Part shown: piece after piece, positions 5,946-51,941 of the stretch | Layout of the letters: the number at the start of each line of letters is the position of its first letter | How positions within the stretch are numbered: the stretch's first letter is position 1 | Assembly: GCF_048403405.1 (NCBI RefSeq) | Contig: NZ_CP183129.1 | Direction: 5' to 3' (one strand) | DNA length: 64,000 nt | DNA from: Escherichia coli | GTDB taxonomy: Bacteria; Pseudomonadota; Gammaproteobacteria; Enterobacterales; Enterobacteriaceae | Translations under genes and position numbers: made by a program | Notes under the pieces: generated by a model | The model's database searches: none | What the model saw: the letters and a program-made list of their open reading frames with translations, nothing else | What the model was told of the DNA's origin: nothing

Positions 5946-6022
5946 GTGGCGCGTTGTACTGGATTCGAACCAGTGACCGATTGCTTAGAAGGCAATTGCT
6001 CTGTCCGGCTGAGCTAACAACG
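5946..6022 (-). tRNA. argO: tRNA-Arg (anticodon UCU), phage argO-like
   Basis: Reverse complement folds as canonical cloverleaf: acceptor GCGTTGT/ACAACGC, anticodon loop CTTCTAA, T-loop TTCGAAT, 3' CCA. Confidence 0.85.
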
Positions 6023-6035
6023 CAGGATACAGATA

Positions 6036-6113
6036 ATGGACCGCCTTCGGGGACCCGAACTCCGCGCAACCAGCTTCGAAGGCTGGCGCTCTTTCCTGAT
6101 GAGCTAATGGCGG
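6036..6113 (-). tRNA. argN: tRNA-Arg-like (anticodon UCG inferred), phage argN-like, possibly degenerate
   Basis: Cloverleaf with anticodon stem CCAGC/GCTGG and loop CTTCGAA, but one acceptor mismatch, one T-stem mismatch and atypical T-loop TTCGGGT. Confidence 0.6.
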
Positions 6114-6120
6114 TATGTGA

Positions 6121-6196
6121 TGGTGGCCCTTGCTGGATTTGAACCAGCGACCTGGCGATTATGAGTCGCTCGCTCTCACCACTGAGCTAAAGGGCC
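6121..6196 (-). tRNA. ileZ: tRNA-Ile2-like (anticodon CAU), phage ileZ-like
   Basis: Reverse complement GGCCCTTTAGCTCAGTGGTGAGAGCG...CTCATAA...TTCAAATCCAGCAAGGGCCACCA closely resembles E. coli ileX as recalled. Confidence 0.85.
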
Positions 6197-6682: not shown

Positions 6683-7426
6683 CTAATCTGACGTCACACG
6701 CACCATTATACTTACTAAAGAAAAGTCATCATCAGGTCCGGCTCTCTCTATACGACGCAAAATACCATTAGAAAACTTCTGACTATTACTCATAGTATTT
6801 GATGTAAATCTGGGGCGTTTTTCCCAAACGTTATGAACTCCATCAGACATGATACACAGATGATACAACCCGTTAATACCAGGCAAATCTTTCCACGGGA
6901 TAAAATCACAGTCGTATTCCATATCAACATTTGAGGCTATGGCAGTCGTTAAGATATTTTTTCCCGGTTTATTCTTCAAATCTCTGGGTTTAAAAATATT
7001 CTGATCAATTAACATCTGATGTCTGGTATCGTCCTTCGTCAATTGATATGCTTTCTTTTCTCCAATGCAATACAAGCGACAATCACCAATATGACCAATA
7101 ATAATTCCGCTATCACAAACATAACAAAAGGTAAGTGTAGTAGCAGCTTTATCGAACTCATCATTAACTTCAGCTAACGACATAACTTTTCGCTTAACTT
7201 CAGCAAATACATTCGGAACTGCATCAAAAGATAAACTTGTCAATGCTGAAAGTTCAGCGATTGCCATGGATGAAGCATAACTGGCACCAGAGTATGAACC
7301 TACACCATCAGCTACGGCAAATAAGATGCCGTCTCCTACAATTTTTGGAGGAAGCAATGAATCTTCGTTGACCCTACCTGGTTCTTTTGGATACGAGAAT
7401 GATGAAGTCGCTATCAGCTGAATCAT
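6683..7426 (-). CDS. PP2C-family (PPM) Ser/Thr protein phosphatase
   Basis: Motifs NEDS, FAVADGVGS, GHIGDCR, MSDGV in PP2C order; ATG with AAGGAG Shine-Dalgarno; 103 bp downstream of the kinase gene. Confidence 0.8.
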   Translation of the reverse strand: MIQLIATSSFSYPKEPGRVNEDSLLPPKIVGDGILFAVADGVGSYSGASYASSMAIAELSALTSLSFDAVPNVFAEVKRKVMSLAEVNDEFDKAATTLTFCYVCDSGIIIGHIGDCRLYCIGEKKAYQLTKDDTRHQMLIDQNIFKPRDLKNKPGKNILTTAIASNVDMEYDCDFIPWKDLPGINGLYHLCIMSDGVHNVWEKRPRFTSNTMSNSQKFSNGILRRIERAGPDDDFSLVSIMVRVTSD

Positions 7427-7529
7427 GACTCACTCCTTAAAAAAGAATGCGCAAAATCAAACGCCACATCATCTATTGTCTGATATCTATCATCTTTATC
7501 CATCCTTGTGCACTTAGCTATGATAGGCT

Positions 7530-8186
7530 TTATTTTTTATCATCTAAATTTAAGTCTTCAATTAACCGTCCCACAGCATAAACATCAGTCTTAACTGAAT
7601 ACTCTGCATTATATAAAATCTCGGGAGCCATATATCTTGTACTTCCCATACGGGTACCGATCTCGGTCAATTTAGTGGTATCCCCTTCGGGATTCGTATC
7701 TTTTACCAGACCAAAATCAGACACCTTGTATGTTCCGTCGCTAAATCGCAAAACATTAAAGGGTTTTATATCTCTGTGTAAATAGCCTTTGGCATGGATG
7801 TAAGCTACACCATCTAATACCATTTTCACTATTGAAATTTTTTGATCTGTTGTAAGAAGGTTGTTCGTTATTTCGTGCTCAAGATCACATTCTGCTTTAT
7901 CCATAATGAACCATGGATTCTCAACAAACAAATCGCACAAATAAATAGGAACAATATTGCTATGTACGCAATGTGATTGATACACAACCTCCCTTTTAAA
8001 ACGCCTTCTAAACTGCTCTATTTGCGCCAAAAGCTCTGGTTTTTCGGGTGCTAAAACCTTTCTAGCATAATCCCCGCATTCACCTTTATTGAGGTTGTAA
8101 ACCTTAACGTGTTCAACAAAGCCAAATGCCCCTCTTCCAATCAACTGAATTCGTTTTATAAAGTAATTACCGTGCTGTTCTTCCAT
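7530..8186 (-). CDS. Hanks-type (eukaryotic-like) Ser/Thr protein kinase
   Basis: Gly-rich loop GRGAFGFV, catalytic loop HRDIKPFN, DFG (VSDFGLV) and APE (YMAPEIL) motifs; start taken at internal ATG 8186 because the ORF's TTG start lies inside the upstream terminator hairpin. Confidence 0.8.
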   Translation of the reverse strand: MEEQHGNYFIKRIQLIGRGAFGFVEHVKVYNLNKGECGDYARKVLAPEKPELLAQIEQFRRRFKREVVYQSHCVHSNIVPIYLCDLFVENPWFIMDKAECDLEHEITNNLLTTDQKISIVKMVLDGVAYIHAKGYLHRDIKPFNVLRFSDGTYKVSDFGLVKDTNPEGDTTKLTEIGTRMGSTRYMAPEILYNAEYSVKTDVYAVGRLIEDLNLDDKK

Positions 8187-8258
8187 TAAGCTCACCGACC
8201 TAAATTGTAACAATATCCATATATTACAACTACAGATAAAAAGGTCCACAGAGTTAAG

Positions 8259-8287
8259 CAAAAAACCCGCACATTTGAGCGGGTTTA
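8259..8287 (-). terminator. intrinsic terminator immediately after the Q-like gene (tR'-like)
   Basis: Minus strand aaacccgc-tcaaatgt-gcgggtttttt. Confidence 0.6.
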
Positions 8288-14081: not shown

Positions 14082-14135
14082 GAAAATAGCACAGAGTGTA
14101 GCATCAGAGTGTACTGACCCCAAAAAGTTGGACAG

Positions 14136-14987
14136 TTAAACACGAGGCATATAGGTCTGATTCCGATATTCAATTGGAGTCAGACCTTTTAATTTCAGGC
14201 TAATTCTTCTGCTGTTGTAGTATTCAATATATTCCGTAACAGCATCCTTCAGTTCGCTTATATTACTGAACTCATCAAGATAAAAACACTCCGACTTTAA
14301 GGTTCCAAAGAAACACTCCACCACAGCATTATCCAGACAATTGCCTTTTCTGGACATGCTTTGTTTAATACCATGTTCTTTAAGGATATTTTGATATCTT
14401 CTCATACGATACTGCCATCCCTGGTCAGAGTGCAGAACAGGATGCTCGTGAGGATTAAGCTTTTTGAATGCCTGATCGAGCATATTCTCAACCATGTTCA
14501 TCACTGGTCTTTCCGAAAGGCTGTAAGAAATAACTTCGTTGTTGAAGAGATCTATTACTGGAGACAAATACAGCTTGCGCCCATTGACTGCAAATTCAGT
14601 AACATCGGTAACCCACTTCTCGTTTGGCCGCGTAGCCTTGAAATCTCTTTGGAGAACATTAGGGGCGGTTTGCCCTACCTCTCCTCTGTAAGAGCGGTAT
14701 CGCTTGACCTTAATCGCTGCTTTAAGTGAGAGGGTTCCCATCAGGCGCTGAACAGCTTTATGGTTAATCTGTTTCCCTTCTCGATGAAGAGACAGCGTTA
14801 CCCTACGGTATCCGTATCGGCCTCTATTCTCGTGATAAATCTCACTAATACGCTTTTTAACGTCCGCATACTTGTCAGGCTTGCTGAGAGCCTTTAGATG
14901 ATAATAAAACGTACTGCGCGGTATCTCCGCAGCCCTGAGAAGCTCATCAAGAGGATAAAACTGCCTTAGCTCGTTGAGTACTTTCAC
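14136..14987 (-). CDS. insK: IS150 transposase OrfB (integrase/DDE domain)
   Basis: 283 aa; matches InsK as recalled; overlaps OrfA in the -1 frame. Confidence 0.9.
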
Positions 14988-15505
14988 TTTTTCGTGGGAT
15001 GAGCTAAGGCTTTCAGCTTTTTTAGATACATAAGCCGCGTTTCAAGAAATCGAACTTGCCTTTCAAGATCCTCAATGCGTCGGTCTTTTGACAGCTCCAA
15101 TGCTGATGCCGCTTTTTCTGGATCAACTGATATTGCAATGTTTCTTTTGGTGCCAATCTTGAGCGCGCGTAAACCAGCTTCTCCGCGCTCTTCATAGACC
15201 TTCAGCCACCTGGCTACAGAACCACTACCAGCAAGCATAAAGTGAGCAGCAGCCTGATTAAGGGACATGTGCTGCTCGATCACAGCTTTCACGACCTTAA
15301 TACGCAACTCTGGATCAGCACTAACGCCTTTAGGTTTGGGAATTAAACCTTTTTCTCCATGTTTTTCATAGAGGGCAACCCATGTCCTGACCTGGGTTCG
15401 GGGGACACCAAAACGTGCCGAGATGATCCTGTAACCATCATCAGTTGTGAAGTAGTGATTCACGACTTCAAGGCGCTTTTCAAAAGGGTATTTTGGCTTT
15501 GACAT
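14984..15505 (-). CDS. insJ: IS150 transposase OrfA (HTH)
   Basis: 173 aa; MSKPKYPFEKRLEVVNHYF... matches InsJ as recalled. Confidence 0.9.
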   Translation of the reverse strand: MSKPKYPFEKRLEVVNHYFTTDDGYRIISARFGVPRTQVRTWVALYEKHGEKGLIPKPKGVSADPELRIKVVKAVIEQHMSLNQAAAHFMLAGSGSVARWLKVYEERGEAGLRALKIGTKRNIAISVDPEKAASALELSKDRRIEDLERQVRFLETRLMYLKKLKALAHPTKK

Positions 15506-15680
15506 ATTAGGGGCTATTCCATTTCATCGTCCAACAAAATGGGTGCAGTACAGAGCAGGGCTATCGGGAATATATGTCTAAATCTGGTAATATCTGGTTT
15601 TGACGCAAAGCGGACAACCACGCTGGCTCTACCCTGCGCCATGAAAATGTCAATTCACATCTGAACTAATGCTCTTTAAT

Positions 15681-16925: not shown

Positions 16926-17591
16926 TCAAATAAAACCAGCTGCCTTCCGGCGTTCGTATTCCTGTTTCAGCCGTTCAATTGGCGTTGGCCCTTGCGGGTG
17001 TTTCGCCCCTTCCAGTTGTCGTCGCACTGGCGGAACACTCATCCCGTTACCAACATGCTTTGCCCATTTCGTCAGTTGCCGTTCCGCAAGTCGTTTTAAC
17101 TCACCCTGCGTCATCTGGCGCTCAATCCCTCTGGTACGCATTTCGAGGCAGATGTGGTACAGCACAGGCTGAGGCCACGGATATTTGTCGCTTCCGTCAT
17201 ATCGCCAGGACTCATCACGCCAGCGGCGGTACTCCTCCATCACAGCATCCACCGTCAGGCCAAATGGATTGGCCCCGCTTTCTGAAATCAGCGCCACAAA
17301 CTCAGCCAGGTCCGGAGGCCATGTTTCACCCGCCCGGCAGCGGTCCATGCACTGGCGGCAGACCTGTCGGATTTGCTGCTCAGTCATCGCGCCAATCTGT
17401 GCAATCCAGAGCTTCGAAGGTGCGGCCCCGTTCTTCTGGGTCCAGCGGTTCGAATAAACCTCCCCCATGAGTTCCCACAGCTTCCAGACCGTTTCCGTCG
17501 CTGATAAATCCGTTTTCACGTTCCCACTGCTCACGTGCTGCCCGAATTTCCTGAACTGCCCGTGATGCGGTGCCACCTGGTGCTGCTGCAT
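16926..17591 (-). CDS. replication protein P-like (helicase loader)
   Basis: Segments ETWPPDLAEFVALI and YPWPQPVLYHICLEM parallel lambda P (RPFLPSPGQFVAWC, YPWKSNAHYWLV) as recalled; 5' 212 bp overlaps the O-like ORF in another frame, so start uncertain. Confidence 0.6.
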   Translation of the reverse strand: MQQHQVAPHHGQFRKFGQHVSSGNVKTDLSATETVWKLWELMGEVYSNRWTQKNGAAPSKLWIAQIGAMTEQQIRQVCRQCMDRCRAGETWPPDLAEFVALISESGANPFGLTVDAVMEEYRRWRDESWRYDGSDKYPWPQPVLYHICLEMRTRGIERQMTQGELKRLAERQLTKWAKHVGNGMSVPPVRRQLEGAKHPQGPTPIERLKQEYERRKAAGFI

Positions 17592-18426
17592 GGTTTACCC
17601 CCTTGCTGACTGGCTTAACCTGCGCCCTGACGTGATTTACGTGACGGGCGAATTTCTGCTCCCACTGAACCTGCGTGAAAACTTTCCCCTCCGCTGCCCA
17701 GTAGTCCCGGAAAGCGGCAAGTTCAGCAGGTGTAAATTCCGGCTCCGGCAAAGCCATCCCCCACAACGCAGCCCGTCGTCGAAAATCCGGCGACGGATGC
17801 CAGTCATCGACCATCGGAAATTTCCCGATGGGTTCGCTCAGTCCATCCAGGGATGCAGGTTCTGCTGCCTGCAACGGCGTACCACTCGACTCACTGGTCG
17901 GAGCACTCTCGCGCACGTGCGCGTTATGTGTGGGGTTTAATTCTTTATCTGTATCTTTATCTGTCGTGACTCGTCGTGACATGTCGTGACATATGCGTGA
18001 CTCGTCGTGACACCCCTCATTCTGTTTTCGTAATTTTTCCCTCTCGCGCTGCGCTCTCTTGCGCTCTGCCGGGGATTTCGCGGTTTGTGAAACGTTGCCA
18101 TTGTCCTCTTTCAGTACCTGGCGTTTTTCCCATCCGGTGATTAAATCTCCATCAAGTACCCGCCCCTGCATTGCCTGTAAAATTGAATCAATTACTTCTT
18201 CCGTCACATCAAGCGCACTTGCTAAATCTTCCGTCGTGACATCAATGTGACCACGTAGTGACACGCCGTGACATGTCGTGACATTTCGTGACGCGCTCAC
18301 CAGAAGGTGGATATACACTGCCATCACTGTTGCAATTGGCTGCCCTGACACCCTGGCAATTGTTCGCCACTTAGGGTCATTTGGCATGTCATGCCATAAT
18401 CTGAGCCAGGCGTTAGCCATACTCAC
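17380..18426 (-). CDS. replication initiator O-like protein containing the origin iterons
   Basis: 348-aa ORF upstream of P-like gene; two clusters of tandem ~10-bp GTCGTGAC repeats lie inside it. Confidence 0.6.
   Translation of the reverse strand: MSMANAWLRLWHDMPNDPKWRTIARVSGQPIATVMAVYIHLLVSASRNVTTCHGVSLRGHIDVTTEDLASALDVTEEVIDSILQAMQGRVLDGDLITGWEKRQVLKEDNGNVSQTAKSPAERKRAQREREKLRKQNEGCHDESRICHDMSRRVTTDKDTDKELNPTHNAHVRESAPTSESSGTPLQAAEPASLDGLSEPIGKFPMVDDWHPSPDFRRRAALWGMALPEPEFTPAELAAFRDYWAAEGKVFTQVQWEQKFARHVNHVRAQVKPVSKGVNHAAAPGGTASRAVQEIRAAREQWERENGFISDGNGLEAVGTHGGGLFEPLDPEERGRTFEALDCTDWRDD
17961..18011. repeat. iteron cluster A (5 tandem ~10-bp NNGTCGTGAC repeats), candidate ori
   Basis: Head-to-tail repeats at one helical-turn spacing, preceded by AT-rich tract 17935..17960. 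Confidence 0.65.
18231..18292. repeat. iteron cluster B (6 tandem ~10-11-bp repeats ending GTGAC)
   Basis: ccgtcgtgac, atcaatgtgac, cacgtagtgac, acgccgtgac, atgtcgtgac, atttcgtgac. Confidence 0.6.
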
Positions 18427-18491
18427 CTCTTCTGATACCGAATCTTTTTACTCACAAATTGCCGGAAGTGATCCGGTATGAATATTGCGAG

Positions 18492-18917
18492 TCAATGCAC
18501 AGCCACAATATTTCCTGCAGGGCCACCACGATTCATCTGGTTGAAACCAGCGATCGCCACTGCGACAAAATCATCAGCGTCTCTCACCAGTCGTTCCCGC
18601 GTCTCCACCAGCTCCCGAAAATAAGCTGAACTGTGGCTGCGCATTCGGGCCACCAGCAGAGGCGGCATTGCTTTTTCGATCGCTGGTAACAACGCCTGAA
18701 TTTTTTTAACCGCATCAGGAGTGTCTTTCTCCACCCAGCGGAAAATTTTCTGGGTATTGCGAGCCAGGGCTTCCGGATGGCTGTCGTCATATAATTCCGG
18801 GAACGTCATACCAAGCTCAAAATAAGCCCGGGTTATTTCAGCTGCCGGAACTTTTTCACCGTCCGGATGCGCCCAGGCATTCATCGCCATGCGGATGTGC
18901 TCATGCCTGATTTTCAT
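18492..18917 (-). CDS. YdaT-like protein (CII-position regulator)
   Basis: 141 aa; N-terminus MKIRHEHI and C-terminus ...VAVH resemble Rac YdaT as recalled; follows the YdaS-like gene. Confidence 0.55.
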   Translation of the reverse strand: MKIRHEHIRMAMNAWAHPDGEKVPAAEITRAYFELGMTFPELYDDSHPEALARNTQKIFRWVEKDTPDAVKKIQALLPAIEKAMPPLLVARMRSHSSAYFRELVETRERLVRDADDFVAVAIAGFNQMNRGGPAGNIVAVH

Positions 18918-19182
18918 GAATCAACTCCGATGCATTTGGTGTGTTAGCCTTGAATCCAACAGGTAAGCCGTCGGTTGGATTCGGGTAAATATCAGGCCGG
19001 AGTTCATGAGGTGTAACCTCGAAATTCGTTACTTCAGCAACACGTAATGCTTTTTCAGGGCTGAATCTTTCATAGCCCCCCAGCACTCGACTTACATGCA
19101 CCTGAGATAAACCCGTTAGCTTCCCAAACTGTAGCTGGGTGATATGTTTCTCTTTTAAATAGTCTCTTAAGTTCATAGCCAA
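18901..19182 (-). CDS. YdaS-like Cro-type HTH protein
   Basis: 93 aa; HTH (QLQFGKLTGLSQVHVSRVLGG) and HELRPDIYP segment; divergent from the repressor gene. Confidence 0.6.
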   Translation of the reverse strand: MAMNLRDYLKEKHITQLQFGKLTGLSQVHVSRVLGGYERFSPEKALRVAEVTNFEVTPHELRPDIYPNPTDGLPVGFKANTPNASELIHENQA

Positions 19183-19208
19183 CCTTCTACGTTATGCCTC
19201 GAGCAAAT

Positions 19209-19223
19209 ATTAGCCCCGCTAAT
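19209..19223. promoter_or_regulatory. perfect 15-bp palindrome ATTAGCcccGCTAAT in the divergent immunity promoter region (candidate operator)
   Basis: Lies between divergent YdaS-like and DicA-like genes. Confidence 0.4.
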
Positions 19224-19283
19224 TTTAAAGATCAATAGCCAGACTATCTTTGATAATATTGGTAAAACAAATAAACTCTATGT

Positions 19284-19745
19284 ATGAAAAAAACACGCGA
19301 AGTGATTGCAACTCCAGAAGCGAGCAAGAATTTAAAAGCCGCATGGAATGCAAGAAAAAAAGAGCTGAAGCTGACTCAAGAGCTGGCGGCTGAGTTGTTG
19401 GGATTCGAATCTCAAGGCACCGTTAGCCAGTATCTGAACGGCAAGATACCGGTAAATACCGACGCTGCGCTAAAATTTGCGGCTCTGTTAAAGGTAAAAC
19501 CAGAGGACATTCGAGAAGACCTTAAAGACTTAATGAATTATGTAAGATCATCAGATACTTATGATGATAACTTTTCAGGCAAAGGATGGAGGCTGGTCAA
19601 TGAAGAACAGGCAGAGTTACTTAACCTCTTCGAGATTCTACCTGCGTCAGAAAAAGCCAAACTCCTTAACCAGCTACGTGGACTAAACAAGCTCTACGAG
19701 GAAGCCTTCGAGAACATGCTGGCACTAAAGAAACGTAACCAGTAG
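19284..19745 (+). CDS. DicA-like prophage repressor (XRE HTH)
   Basis: 153 aa; HTH (LTQELAAELLGFESQGTVSQYLNG); C-terminal LLNLFEILPASEKAKLLNQL resembles DicA as recalled. Confidence 0.7.
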   Translation: MKKTREVIATPEASKNLKAAWNARKKELKLTQELAAELLGFESQGTVSQYLNGKIPVNTDAALKFAALLKVKPEDIREDLKDLMNYVRSSDTYDDNFSGKGWRLVNEEQAELLNLFEILPASEKAKLLNQLRGLNKLYEEAFENMLALKKRNQ

Positions 19746-24770: not shown

Positions 24771-25019
24771 ATGGCAAGACTTATTCTGCTCACTGAGTGG
24801 GCAAAAGAGGAATTCAGTGAACCGGTCCCTACTCCGAGTACGTTAAGTAAATACGCTAAAGCCGGAATGATATTTCCTCTCCCCAAAAAAGTTGGAAGAC
24901 GCTGGCGAGTGGATCCGCAAGCTCGCTTTGTCGGAATGGTAAACAAGCCGGAGGTGATCGCCACAGATCACCCTGCTTTGAAGAGGATACTGGAAGATGG
25001 CGCGCCCGCGAAAATATAA
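24771..25019 (+). CDS. excisionase (Xis/AlpA-like)
   Basis: 82 aa; MIFPLPKKVGRRWRVDPQARF resembles lambda Xis; 3' end overlaps int start. Confidence 0.7.
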   Translation: MARLILLTEWAKEEFSEPVPTPSTLSKYAKAGMIFPLPKKVGRRWRVDPQARFVGMVNKPEVIATDHPALKRILEDGAPAKI

Positions 25020-26127
25020 AACCGATGTTCCGGGATTATCTCCGTATTTTGACAAAAGAAATAACAAAGTTTACTGGCGTTACAGGCATCCCATAACAGG
25101 CAAAAATCACGGTCTCGGCAGTATTGACCAGAAACTGGCAGAAACTATTGCAGCAGAAGCGAACAGCCGTCTTGCCCGGCAGCAAATGGAACAAATGCTC
25201 AGTCTGCAGGAGAAAATTATTAGTGATACCGGCGGTTCATCAACCGTTACCATTTTTCTGAATAATTACAGAAAAATTCAACAGGAAAGATATGAAAACG
25301 GCGAGATCAAACTCAACACGCTGAAACAGAAAGCGGCCCCTCTCAGGGTATTTGATGAACGTTTTGGCACCAGACCGTTAGATGCCATAACCGTAAAAGA
25401 TGTGGTATCAGTACTGGAAGAGTACAAGGCCAGAGGACATAACAGAATGGGACAAATTTTCAGGAAAGTACTGATCGATGTTTTCCGGGAAGCTCAGCAA
25501 ACGGGCGATGTCCCGCCAGGCTTTAACCCTGCAGAATCGGCAAAAAAACCGCAGGTGCGGATATCAAGACAGCGACTGACTTTTGATGAGTGGATGATGA
25601 TTTATAACGCAGCGGAAAAGAATGGTTACTTTTTACAGCGCGGTATGCTGCTGGCACTGATGACAGGCCAGCGCCTTTCAGATATTTGCAAAATGCAATT
25701 TTCGGATATCCGGGATGGTTATCTTCATGTCGAACAGCAAAAAACAGGAACCCGGATTGCCATCCCTCTGGCTCTGCGTTGCGATAAATTAAATCTCACC
25801 CTGGATGATGTAGTGTCATCCTGCCGCGATTGCGTTCTTAGTCCGTGGCTATTGCACCACCATCACGCGAAAGGGACAGCTAAGCGCGGCGGGATGGTTA
25901 AGCCAGCAACATTAACCGTTGCATTTAAAAAAGCCCGGGATTCTGTGGATTACAACTGGCGTGCTAATGGCACCCCACCCTCTTTCCATGAGCAGAGATC
26001 TTTATCAGAGCGATTGTTCAGAGAGCAGGGGGTTGATACCAAAATTTTGCTAGGCCATTCGAATCAAAAAATGACCGATATTTACAACGATGTACGCGGT
26101 AAGGAGTGGAAAAAACTGGTCATTTGA
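24997..26127 (+). CDS. phage integrase (tyrosine recombinase)
   Basis: 376 aa; C-terminal catalytic region ...LLGHSNQKMTDIYNDVRG; ends 45 bp from the ompW stop. Confidence 0.9.
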   Translation: MARPRKYKTDVPGLSPYFDKRNNKVYWRYRHPITGKNHGLGSIDQKLAETIAAEANSRLARQQMEQMLSLQEKIISDTGGSSTVTIFLNNYRKIQQERYENGEIKLNTLKQKAAPLRVFDERFGTRPLDAITVKDVVSVLEEYKARGHNRMGQIFRKVLIDVFREAQQTGDVPPGFNPAESAKKPQVRISRQRLTFDEWMMIYNAAEKNGYFLQRGMLLALMTGQRLSDICKMQFSDIRDGYLHVEQQKTGTRIAIPLALRCDKLNLTLDDVVSSCRDCVLSPWLLHHHHAKGTAKRGGMVKPATLTVAFKKARDSVDYNWRANGTPPSFHEQRSLSERLFREQGVDTKILLGHSNQKMTDIYNDVRGKEWKKLVI

Positions 26128-26172: not shown

Positions 26173-26826
26173 TTAAAAACGATATCCTGCCGAGAACATA
26201 AACACCCACGGGTCAAGGCGTACATTGTCGCTATAACTGCCTTTAGCCAGTTTACGACCATCAGATTTATACTTCGCGGTGGTATCGATATCCATGTACC
26301 AGACTGACATGTTAACCAACCAGTCACGGTTAATCAGATAATCAACCCCCACCTGCCCGGCAGCTCCCCAGGAATCTTTCAGACTGAGATCGGAAAGCCC
26401 CGCCTCTTTGCCATGATCGTTAAATCCATTATCAAAGAAGGTGGTGTAGTTAATACCTGCCCCAACGTAAGGACGGAATTTGCTGCTGGCATCACCAAAA
26501 TACCACTGCGCCATCAGTGTTGGCGGCAGATGATGAACGGTTGCAATATCGCCGGTCGCCCGGGTGCCGATTTTATGGCGGAACGGCGTCGCTGCCAGCA
26601 ATTCCACACCAATGTTATCGGTCGCCATATAAGTAAACGTCAGGCCCAGTTGCGTGTTATTGGTCACGCTGAATCCACCCAGACTTCCTAACGTACCACC
26701 AGCACCTTCTGTTGGACGTACGGTTGCAGACCCTGCACGCATAAAAAATTCGCCTGCTTCATGCGCATAGGCACTGCCAGAGAGAAGAGTTGTTACTGCC
26801 AAAGCCGCCACTGTTAACTTTTTCAT
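26173..26826 (-). CDS. ompW: outer membrane protein OmpW (variant C-terminal loop)
   Basis: Signal peptide MKKLTVAALAVTTLLSGSAYA and body match OmpW; residues ~183-200 differ from the K-12 sequence as recalled. Confidence 0.9.
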   Translation of the reverse strand: MKKLTVAALAVTTLLSGSAYAHEAGEFFMRAGSATVRPTEGAGGTLGSLGGFSVTNNTQLGLTFTYMATDNIGVELLAATPFRHKIGTRATGDIATVHHLPPTLMAQWYFGDASSKFRPYVGAGINYTTFFDNGFNDHGKEAGLSDLSLKDSWGAAGQVGVDYLINRDWLVNMSVWYMDIDTTAKYKSDGRKLAKGSYSDNVRLDPWVFMFSAGYRF

Positions 26827-51737: not shown

Positions 51738-51822
<85 letters not shown>

Positions 51823-51856
51823 TCTCAAGCATTACCTCAAAATTTGAATTACCCTT

Positions 51857-51941
<85 letters not shown>

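Follow-up and report, generated by a model that had tools for sequence, protein, structure and literature searches.

Genetic organization of the locus

The window, meaning here the whole 64,000-nt stretch of Escherichia coli DNA that was analyzed, contains a prophage whose early replication genes are encoded on the minus strand:

16926–17387, minus strand: P-like helicase loader gene, 153 aa (RefSeq), whose start overlaps the stop of the initiator gene
17380–18426, minus strand: initiator (O-like) gene, an open reading frame (ORF) of 348 aa (RefSeq start at 18420, 346 aa)
18492–19182, minus strand: YdaT-family gene (at the CII position) and YdaS-family gene (at the Cro position), upstream of the initiator gene in the same operon

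The identical locus in E. coli 118UI is annotated by RefSeq, which records the initiator ORF as a "DnaT-like ssDNA-binding domain-containing protein" followed by "replication protein P". Upstream lie YdaT- and YdaS-family genes and a divergent repressor-like gene, and the prophage is located beside ompW. Existing records of the initiator gene name only a DnaT-like or hypothetical protein and leave the origin unmarked. The product of the downstream gene, called replication protein P in RefSeq, matches PHROG 109 ("P-like helicase loader") with an E-value of 2e-63.

The integrase gene of the prophage (24997–26127) abuts ompW (26173–26826), which identifies the ompW-integrated type; phage-database matches named PPompW share the C-terminal half of the initiator. 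A tyrosine tRNA pair (51738–51941) marks the rest of the window as chromosome. An IS3-family element, which we take to be IS150-like, occupies approximately 14124–15570, flanked by the QueH-like and DUF977 genes of the prophage, with ORFs at 14136–14987 and 14984–15505 (minus strand; 283 and 173 aa). Strain 118UI has an otherwise matching prophage that is shorter by 1446 bp at this site. Genes for a PP2C-family Ser/Thr phosphatase and a Ser/Thr kinase (6683–8261, minus strand; named as such in the matching RefSeq locus) are found just downstream of the Q antiterminator gene, and tRNA genes for Arg, Arg, and Met at 5947–6196.

The initiator comprises an N-terminal winged-helix domain (N-domain), a basic helix with a disordered linker, and a DnaT-like C-terminal domain. 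Searches against PHROG profiles identified it as a replication initiation protein (E-values of 1e-117 to 1e-93), with weak matches to "replisome organizer" (4e-5) and "DnaD-like helicase loader" (2e-7). A Pfam scan (E ≤ 10) returned a DnaT domain at residues 203–269 and a chance HTH_Crp_2 match only; no lambda-O domain was found by Pfam at this threshold, NCBIfam gave DnaT only, and Pfam reported no replisome-organizer domain. The NCBIfam DnaT model scored 97 bits against a cut-off of 201 and covered residues 194–280 only. Full-length equivalence to the host DnaT was rejected because the match is partial and below this cut-off. The description of the gene as O-like in the earlier note is thus justified by its position and its P-like partner, but not by homology. 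The fold of the N-domain is predicted to be a winged helix of the DnaD N-terminal-domain type. A PDB sequence search with a 65-sequence family profile produced no match, and residues 11–100 were mostly confident in the AlphaFold model (65 sequences).

The gene is a mosaic. Its C-terminal half (17380–17962) is 93% identical to ydaU of phage Rac-SA53, and its N-terminal half (17942–18426) is 88% identical to phages Evi and Tritos. These Evi-type and Rac-SA53-type similarities overlap only at 17942–17962, within the AT-rich tract described below, which constitutes the mosaic junction. Since the two halves match different phages and meet in this tract, the coding region of the N-domain and both repeat arrays form one exchangeable module. 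Of the two comparisons suggested in the earlier note, the one with lambda revealed the same order of iterons and AT-rich tract. The Rac origin was rejected as a counterpart because Rac-SA53 ydaU shares the C-terminal half only; its N-terminal half is unrelated to the N-domain and is devoid of a GTCAC array. Phage Evi has no P-like gene. By megablast, 2563 of the 5426 complete E. coli genomes searched contain sequence resembling the gene over at least a portion of its length, and 657 of those genomes have a match covering at least 80% of it, O157:H7 strains included.

Architecture of the repeat arrays

Both repeat arrays lie inside the initiator ORF, together with three further sequence elements:

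17910–17923, no strand assigned: G+C-rich perfect palindrome CGCGCACGTGCGCG, approximately 40 nt beyond the last iteron; third element of the origin-like layout
17936–17962, no strand assigned: AT-rich tract, purine-rich on the coding strand, immediately following cluster A when read in gene orientation; proposed DNA unwinding element
17963–18011, minus strand: cluster A (linker array), five head-to-tail repeats with the core GTCACG; proposed core initiator-binding array
18203–18207, plus strand: single inverted core (GTCAC), 33 nt past the last cluster B repeat in gene orientation
18233–18292, minus strand: cluster B (promoter-proximal), six head-to-tail repeats with the coding-strand core GTCAC(G)

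The five and six head-to-tail repeats of about 10 bp described in the earlier note were recovered at these positions. All units of both arrays are 10 or 11 bp long and end in (C)GTGAC on the plus strand. In cluster A, CGTGAC occurs at plus-strand positions 17965, 17975, 17985, 17996, and 18006, corresponding to spacings of 10, 11, 10, and 10 bp in gene orientation, and the array encodes CHDESRICHDMSRRVTT. In cluster B, which encodes SRNVTTCHGVSLRGHIDVT, the plus-strand GTGAC ends at 18240, 18251, 18262, 18272, 18282, and 18292, with spacings of 10, 10, 10, 11, and 11 bp in gene orientation; two of the six units are degenerate (aaTGTGAC and gtAGTGAC). The spacing therefore equals one helical turn throughout, and the gap of 221 bp between the clusters agrees with the approximately 220 bp given before.

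Tandem Repeats Finder detected period-10 arrays at 17963–18011 and 18258–18292, and a repeat-family search placed the copies from clusters A and B in one family. Nine of the 29 CGTGAC/GTCACG hexamers in the window fall within 360 bp, all on the same strand, whereas any other 360-bp stretch of the window contains two at most (Poisson P of about 2e-13). The longest chain of the same 5-mer at helical spacing within the gene comprises six copies, compared with a maximum of four among 2000 codon shuffles. No further array of the core was present elsewhere in the window or in the whole genome of phage Evi.

Selection on the repeats at the DNA level

The peptides encoded by the arrays look repetitive (CHD..SR..CHD and VT..VT), and a DNA periodicity arising as a by-product of such a peptide motif was the case against an origin named in the earlier note. 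The core GTCAC, however, starts at nucleotides 135, 145, 155, 165, 176, and 187 of the gene in cluster B and at nucleotides 416, 426, 437, 447, and 457 in cluster A. The 10/11-bp period thereby places it in all three reading frames in each array, so a peptide repeat cannot be its source. Furthermore, synonymous sites were compared between the window and 11 homologues (55–87% protein identity), using codons that specify the same amino acid. Among the distant homologues, such codons were identical in 158 of 174 cases over the cores versus 440 of 904 elsewhere, with a Fisher p ≤ 0.005 for each of the 10 distant pairs; the close relative Evi was not informative. Synonymous codons are thus fixed over the cores only, and the same DNA core is kept among homologues while the encoded peptide differs. 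The repeats are selected as DNA and are not a by-product of the peptide, and the probability left to a peptide origin is vanishingly small.

On the AlphaFold model, the residues encoded by cluster B span the end of helix 2 and the hairpin/loop that comes after it, which is the least confident part of the N-domain and differs in length among relatives. Cluster A encodes the low-confidence linker after the basic helix. Both arrays are therefore placed where the protein tolerates them.

Comparison of 42 distinct close relatives revealed that substitutions are mostly located in the spacers and that the copy number changes in 21-bp steps, corresponding to two repeats, seven codons, and two helical turns. 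Cluster B is present in six or four copies and cluster A in five or three (L064, L065, and L070 versus 17963–18292 of the window; L001, 3280–3330). The core of the promoter-proximal repeat of cluster A (18004–18011) is lost in L031, L041, L042, L047, L049, and L053–L062, as exemplified by GGCGCGCGAC, and the four repeats nearer the AT-rich tract are kept in the same loci. The 21-bp steps, together with the mosaic junction in the adjacent AT-rich tract, would also fit repeats that arose neutrally, through replication slippage at a module junction prone to recombination, and that have no binding function. Against this explanation, the cores are kept at synonymous sites across phages of E. coli, Pseudomonas, and Aeromonas, most substitutions separating close relatives lie in the spacers, and both arrays switch their core together in other clades, as described below. 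We consider neutral slippage highly improbable.

The AT-rich tract and the palindrome

The earlier note had also described an AT-rich tract with short repeats beside cluster A. The tract was verified at 17936–17962, where only five of 27 nucleotides are G or C (18% G+C) and TCTTTATCTGT occurs twice. The statement that it precedes the cluster does not hold for the direction of transcription, in which the tract follows cluster A, as in lambda. Tandem Repeats Finder further reported two copies of the 12-bp sequence TCTTTATCTGTA at 17942–17964. The lowest G+C contents of any 40-bp window in the gene, 0.35 and 0.375 (windows from 17920 and 17940), are both located over the tract; a third window, from 18180, also has a value of 0.375. 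In a promoter and terminator scan of 17300–19400, only the palindrome at 17910–17923 exceeded the shuffled expectation. In lambda, a palindrome likewise lies beyond the AT-rich tract. The neighborhood of cluster B is weakly enriched in AT (0.48 versus 0.41), and a second unwinding element at that site was rejected on account of this weak enrichment.

Conservation of the layout among related phages

By tblastn, the N-domain was found in phages of Pseudomonas, Aeromonas, Ralstonia, and Microcystis. Pseudomonas phage P7869 (63% amino acid identity) and Aeromonas phage pAEv1818 carry GTCAC arrays at nucleotides 129–160 and 388–418 of the gene, and Ralstonia phage Hennie (37% identity) carries arrays at 130–182 and 393–432 with the core GCAACG in both. 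The family set comprised 84 loci; a scan of viral contigs with the family alignment supplied 80 further diverse loci. A linker array, defined as at least three repeats of 10 or 11 bp, is present in 81 of the 84 loci, far above codon-shuffled controls. The cores fit the pattern G-N-N-A-C-G, comprising GTCACG, GCAACG, GTGACG, GAAACG, GTAACG, and a few variants; they are clade-specific and vary across the family mainly at two positions.

An N-terminal array is additionally present in 36 of the 84 loci, at the same gene position in the Pseudomonas, Aeromonas, and many metagenomic phage homologues. The judgment of the earlier note that two separated clusters are unusual is therefore valid relative to lambda but not within the family, where they are a conserved trait of several clades. 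The 5-mer is identical in the N-terminal and linker arrays in 31 of these 36 loci, and the other five mostly reflect register or orientation effects of the script. The GTGACG and GAAACG clades possess their own core in both arrays. This joint change of core is the strongest sign that a single protein reads both arrays. The inverted core 5-mer is found at the exact +33 offset in all loci of the GTCACG clade, and the GCAACG and most GTGACG clade loci have their own inverted core, positioned 5 nt past a cluster B repeat.

The sequence beyond the linker array is also shared. The 40 nt past the array have an AT content of 0.57 versus 0.40 for the gene, with higher values in 79 of 81 loci, and a purine content of 0.75 versus 0.56; this bias holds in high-G+C hosts too. 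A perfect hairpin with a stem of at least 6, centered 25–75 nt past the last iteron, was detected in 35 of 77 loci (45%, counting loci regardless of relatedness) compared with 12% in control bins drawn from the same genes. The stems differ in sequence by locus (L089–L168) while remaining complementary, and many enclose a 4-nt loop, as in GC-TAAC-GC or C6...G6. This recurrent layout at the domain linker of the 81 loci, with an A-rich tract after the iterons, supports the origin reading proposed in the earlier note. Several individual loci display modified arrangements: the linker array is duplicated in L122 (gene nucleotides 369–572), an array lies near the 5' end in L125 (64–84), the N-terminal array is inverted in L143 (201–259), and an array has grown to about ten copies in L110 (158–295).

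The gene downstream of the initiator gene varies: it is P-like in the window and dnaB in Hennie; P7869 has a primase/helicase at this place and pAEv1818 a replicative helicase. No protein part other than the N-domain is thus conserved together with the repeats. The N-domain and iteron module is also joined to varied C-terminal regions (L001, 2388–3458; L003, 1501–2400; L004, 1435–2352). As the repeats are embedded in the DNA encoding the N-domain, their co-inheritance is automatic and is by itself no proof that this domain binds them, which leaves room for recognition of the G-N-N-A-C-G cores by a host factor or another phage protein. For a host factor, one would have to reconcile a core that differs between clades infecting related hosts with one that is common to phages of unrelated hosts (E. 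coli, Pseudomonas, and Aeromonas); as for another phage protein, the neighboring phage genes are not conserved with the repeats. Recognition by a reader other than the N-domain is accordingly regarded as improbable.

Proposed function of the element

These findings suggest that the element is probably the replication origin of the lambdoid prophage beside ompW, located inside the gene of its own initiator. By analogy with lambda, SPP1 oriL, and pSK41, we infer a pathway of N-domain binding, unwinding at the AT-rich tract, and helicase loading. The winged-helix N-domain would bind one GTCACG core per helical turn, and binding of this kind would align the initiator monomers on one face of the DNA over cluster A. 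The resulting nucleoprotein array may then destabilize the adjacent tract at 17936–17962, and the DnaT-like C-terminal domain and the P-like protein would bring the host DnaB helicase to the opened DNA. Cluster B would serve as a second, auxiliary array for the same protein. Its role is most likely to strengthen or regulate origin assembly, which could occur through cooperative binding, looping, or blocking of transcription of the initiator operon. Several points weigh against this reading. Cluster B is without a marked AT-rich neighbor, and its lack in more than half of the family indicates that this array is no general requirement. The inter-array distance was 229 bp in the window and many relatives and 227, 238, or 247 bp in others; such an unfixed distance (227–247 bp) speaks against strict helical phasing between the arrays, and this notion was dropped. 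The decay of the promoter-proximal repeat of cluster A in several close relatives is a further point against it.

A more elaborate form of this origin reading envisages a bipartite origin that requires both arrays in cis. Initiator filaments on the two arrays, approximately 220 bp apart and one of them with an inverted terminal copy, would loop or wrap the coding DNA between them, thereby opening the A-rich tract or linking initiation to transcription of the initiator gene. It further holds that a two-base code within G-N-N-A-C-G sets origin specificity and incompatibility and can be reprogrammed. We regard the bipartite origin with its reprogrammable code as possible, albeit doubtful.

The arrays might alternatively bind the initiator or another early protein and act mainly as operators or roadblocks that limit the expression of the initiator and the loader, with replication starting elsewhere. 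Both arrays are situated within the transcribed early operon, and transcription starting at the YdaT/YdaS genes crosses both of them. Cluster B, moreover, lies early in the gene, has an operator-like inverted copy, and is without a strong AT-rich neighbor. The linker array, however, adjoins the A-rich tract (79 of 81 loci), frequently with a hairpin as well; this layout is that of an origin rather than of an operator, and the core forms no other array in the window or the Evi genome. In lambda, SPP1, and pSK41, repeats embedded in an analogous way are origins (PMC3349717, PMC5737612, PMC5703833). For the element as a whole, an operator function appears unlikely; for cluster B taken by itself, it is more plausible.

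Origins inside initiator genes are well known, and the general origin reading is therefore not surprising. No published account of these repeats or of the iterons of this family was found in the literature searched, within which the single-turn repeats, the core variable at two positions, the recurrent second array in the coding region of the DNA-binding domain, and the conserved hairpin are unreported. Locating the origin tells where such prophages begin replication after induction. A DNA-binding domain and its sites that travel together as a specificity module would explain why the mosaic join falls exactly at the AT-rich tract. The two-position variation of the core provides a compact natural data set on the joint change of specificity in an initiator and its sites, and the optional second array offers a testable case of auxiliary initiator sites evolving inside coding DNA.

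Comparison with known replication origins

The lambda origin consists of four 18-bp iterons joined to a 38-bp AT-rich sequence inside gene O (PMC3349717; see also PMC7466680), and the number of iterons is four in lambda and six in Stx phages (PMC3349717, PMC7466680). As in lambda, the putative origin described here is located inside the initiator gene, where the DNA-binding domain is linked to the partner-binding domain; along the direction of transcription, an AT-rich tract comes after the iterons, and a P-type loader gene lies downstream. The iteron number also varies in frame among relatives, as it does in lambda and Stx phages. In contrast to lambda, the initiator has a DnaT-like C-terminal domain and no lambda-O domain detectable by Pfam, the units are direct repeats of a single turn (10 or 11 bp) with a 6-bp core instead of 18-bp iterons, and a second array is present 221 bp upstream, in the coding region of the DNA-binding domain.

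In phage P4, two sets of the same iteron (ori and crr) are recognized by one initiator. In PICI/SaPI origins, one initiator likewise recognizes two iteron sets, which in PICIs flank an AT-rich region (PMC6092414). The AT-rich tract of the present element differs from that of the PICIs in lying outside the array pair and adjoining cluster A only. Both arrays here are coding DNA, unlike those of PICIs and P4, and the initiators are unrelated, those of PICIs and P4 being of the primase-helicase type.

In Bacillus phage SPP1, oriL lies inside gene 38 and contains repeats (AB boxes) beside an AT-rich unwinding element; the product of this gene, the replisome organizer G38P, has two separate binding regions (PMC5737612). 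The second of them, oriR, maps to a different part of the SPP1 genome, whereas both arrays here reside in one gene. The homology of G38P to the present initiator is remote, and Pfam detected no replisome-organizer domain. In the staphylococcal RepA_N-type initiator pSK41 Rep, a winged-helix, DnaD-like N-domain binds Rep boxes in the central part of its own gene, the protein segment encoded by the origin is a linker, and the C-domain is host- or partner-specific; natural RepA_N chimeras, such as pPR9, swap the N-domain together with the origin (PMC5703833). The element in the window resembles both RepA_N and SPP1 G38P in that the putative binding repeats are placed in the initiator's own gene, next to the proposed unwinding element. 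As in the RepA_N chimeras, the N-domain and its putative sites are swapped as a unit, here between Evi-type and Rac-type modules.
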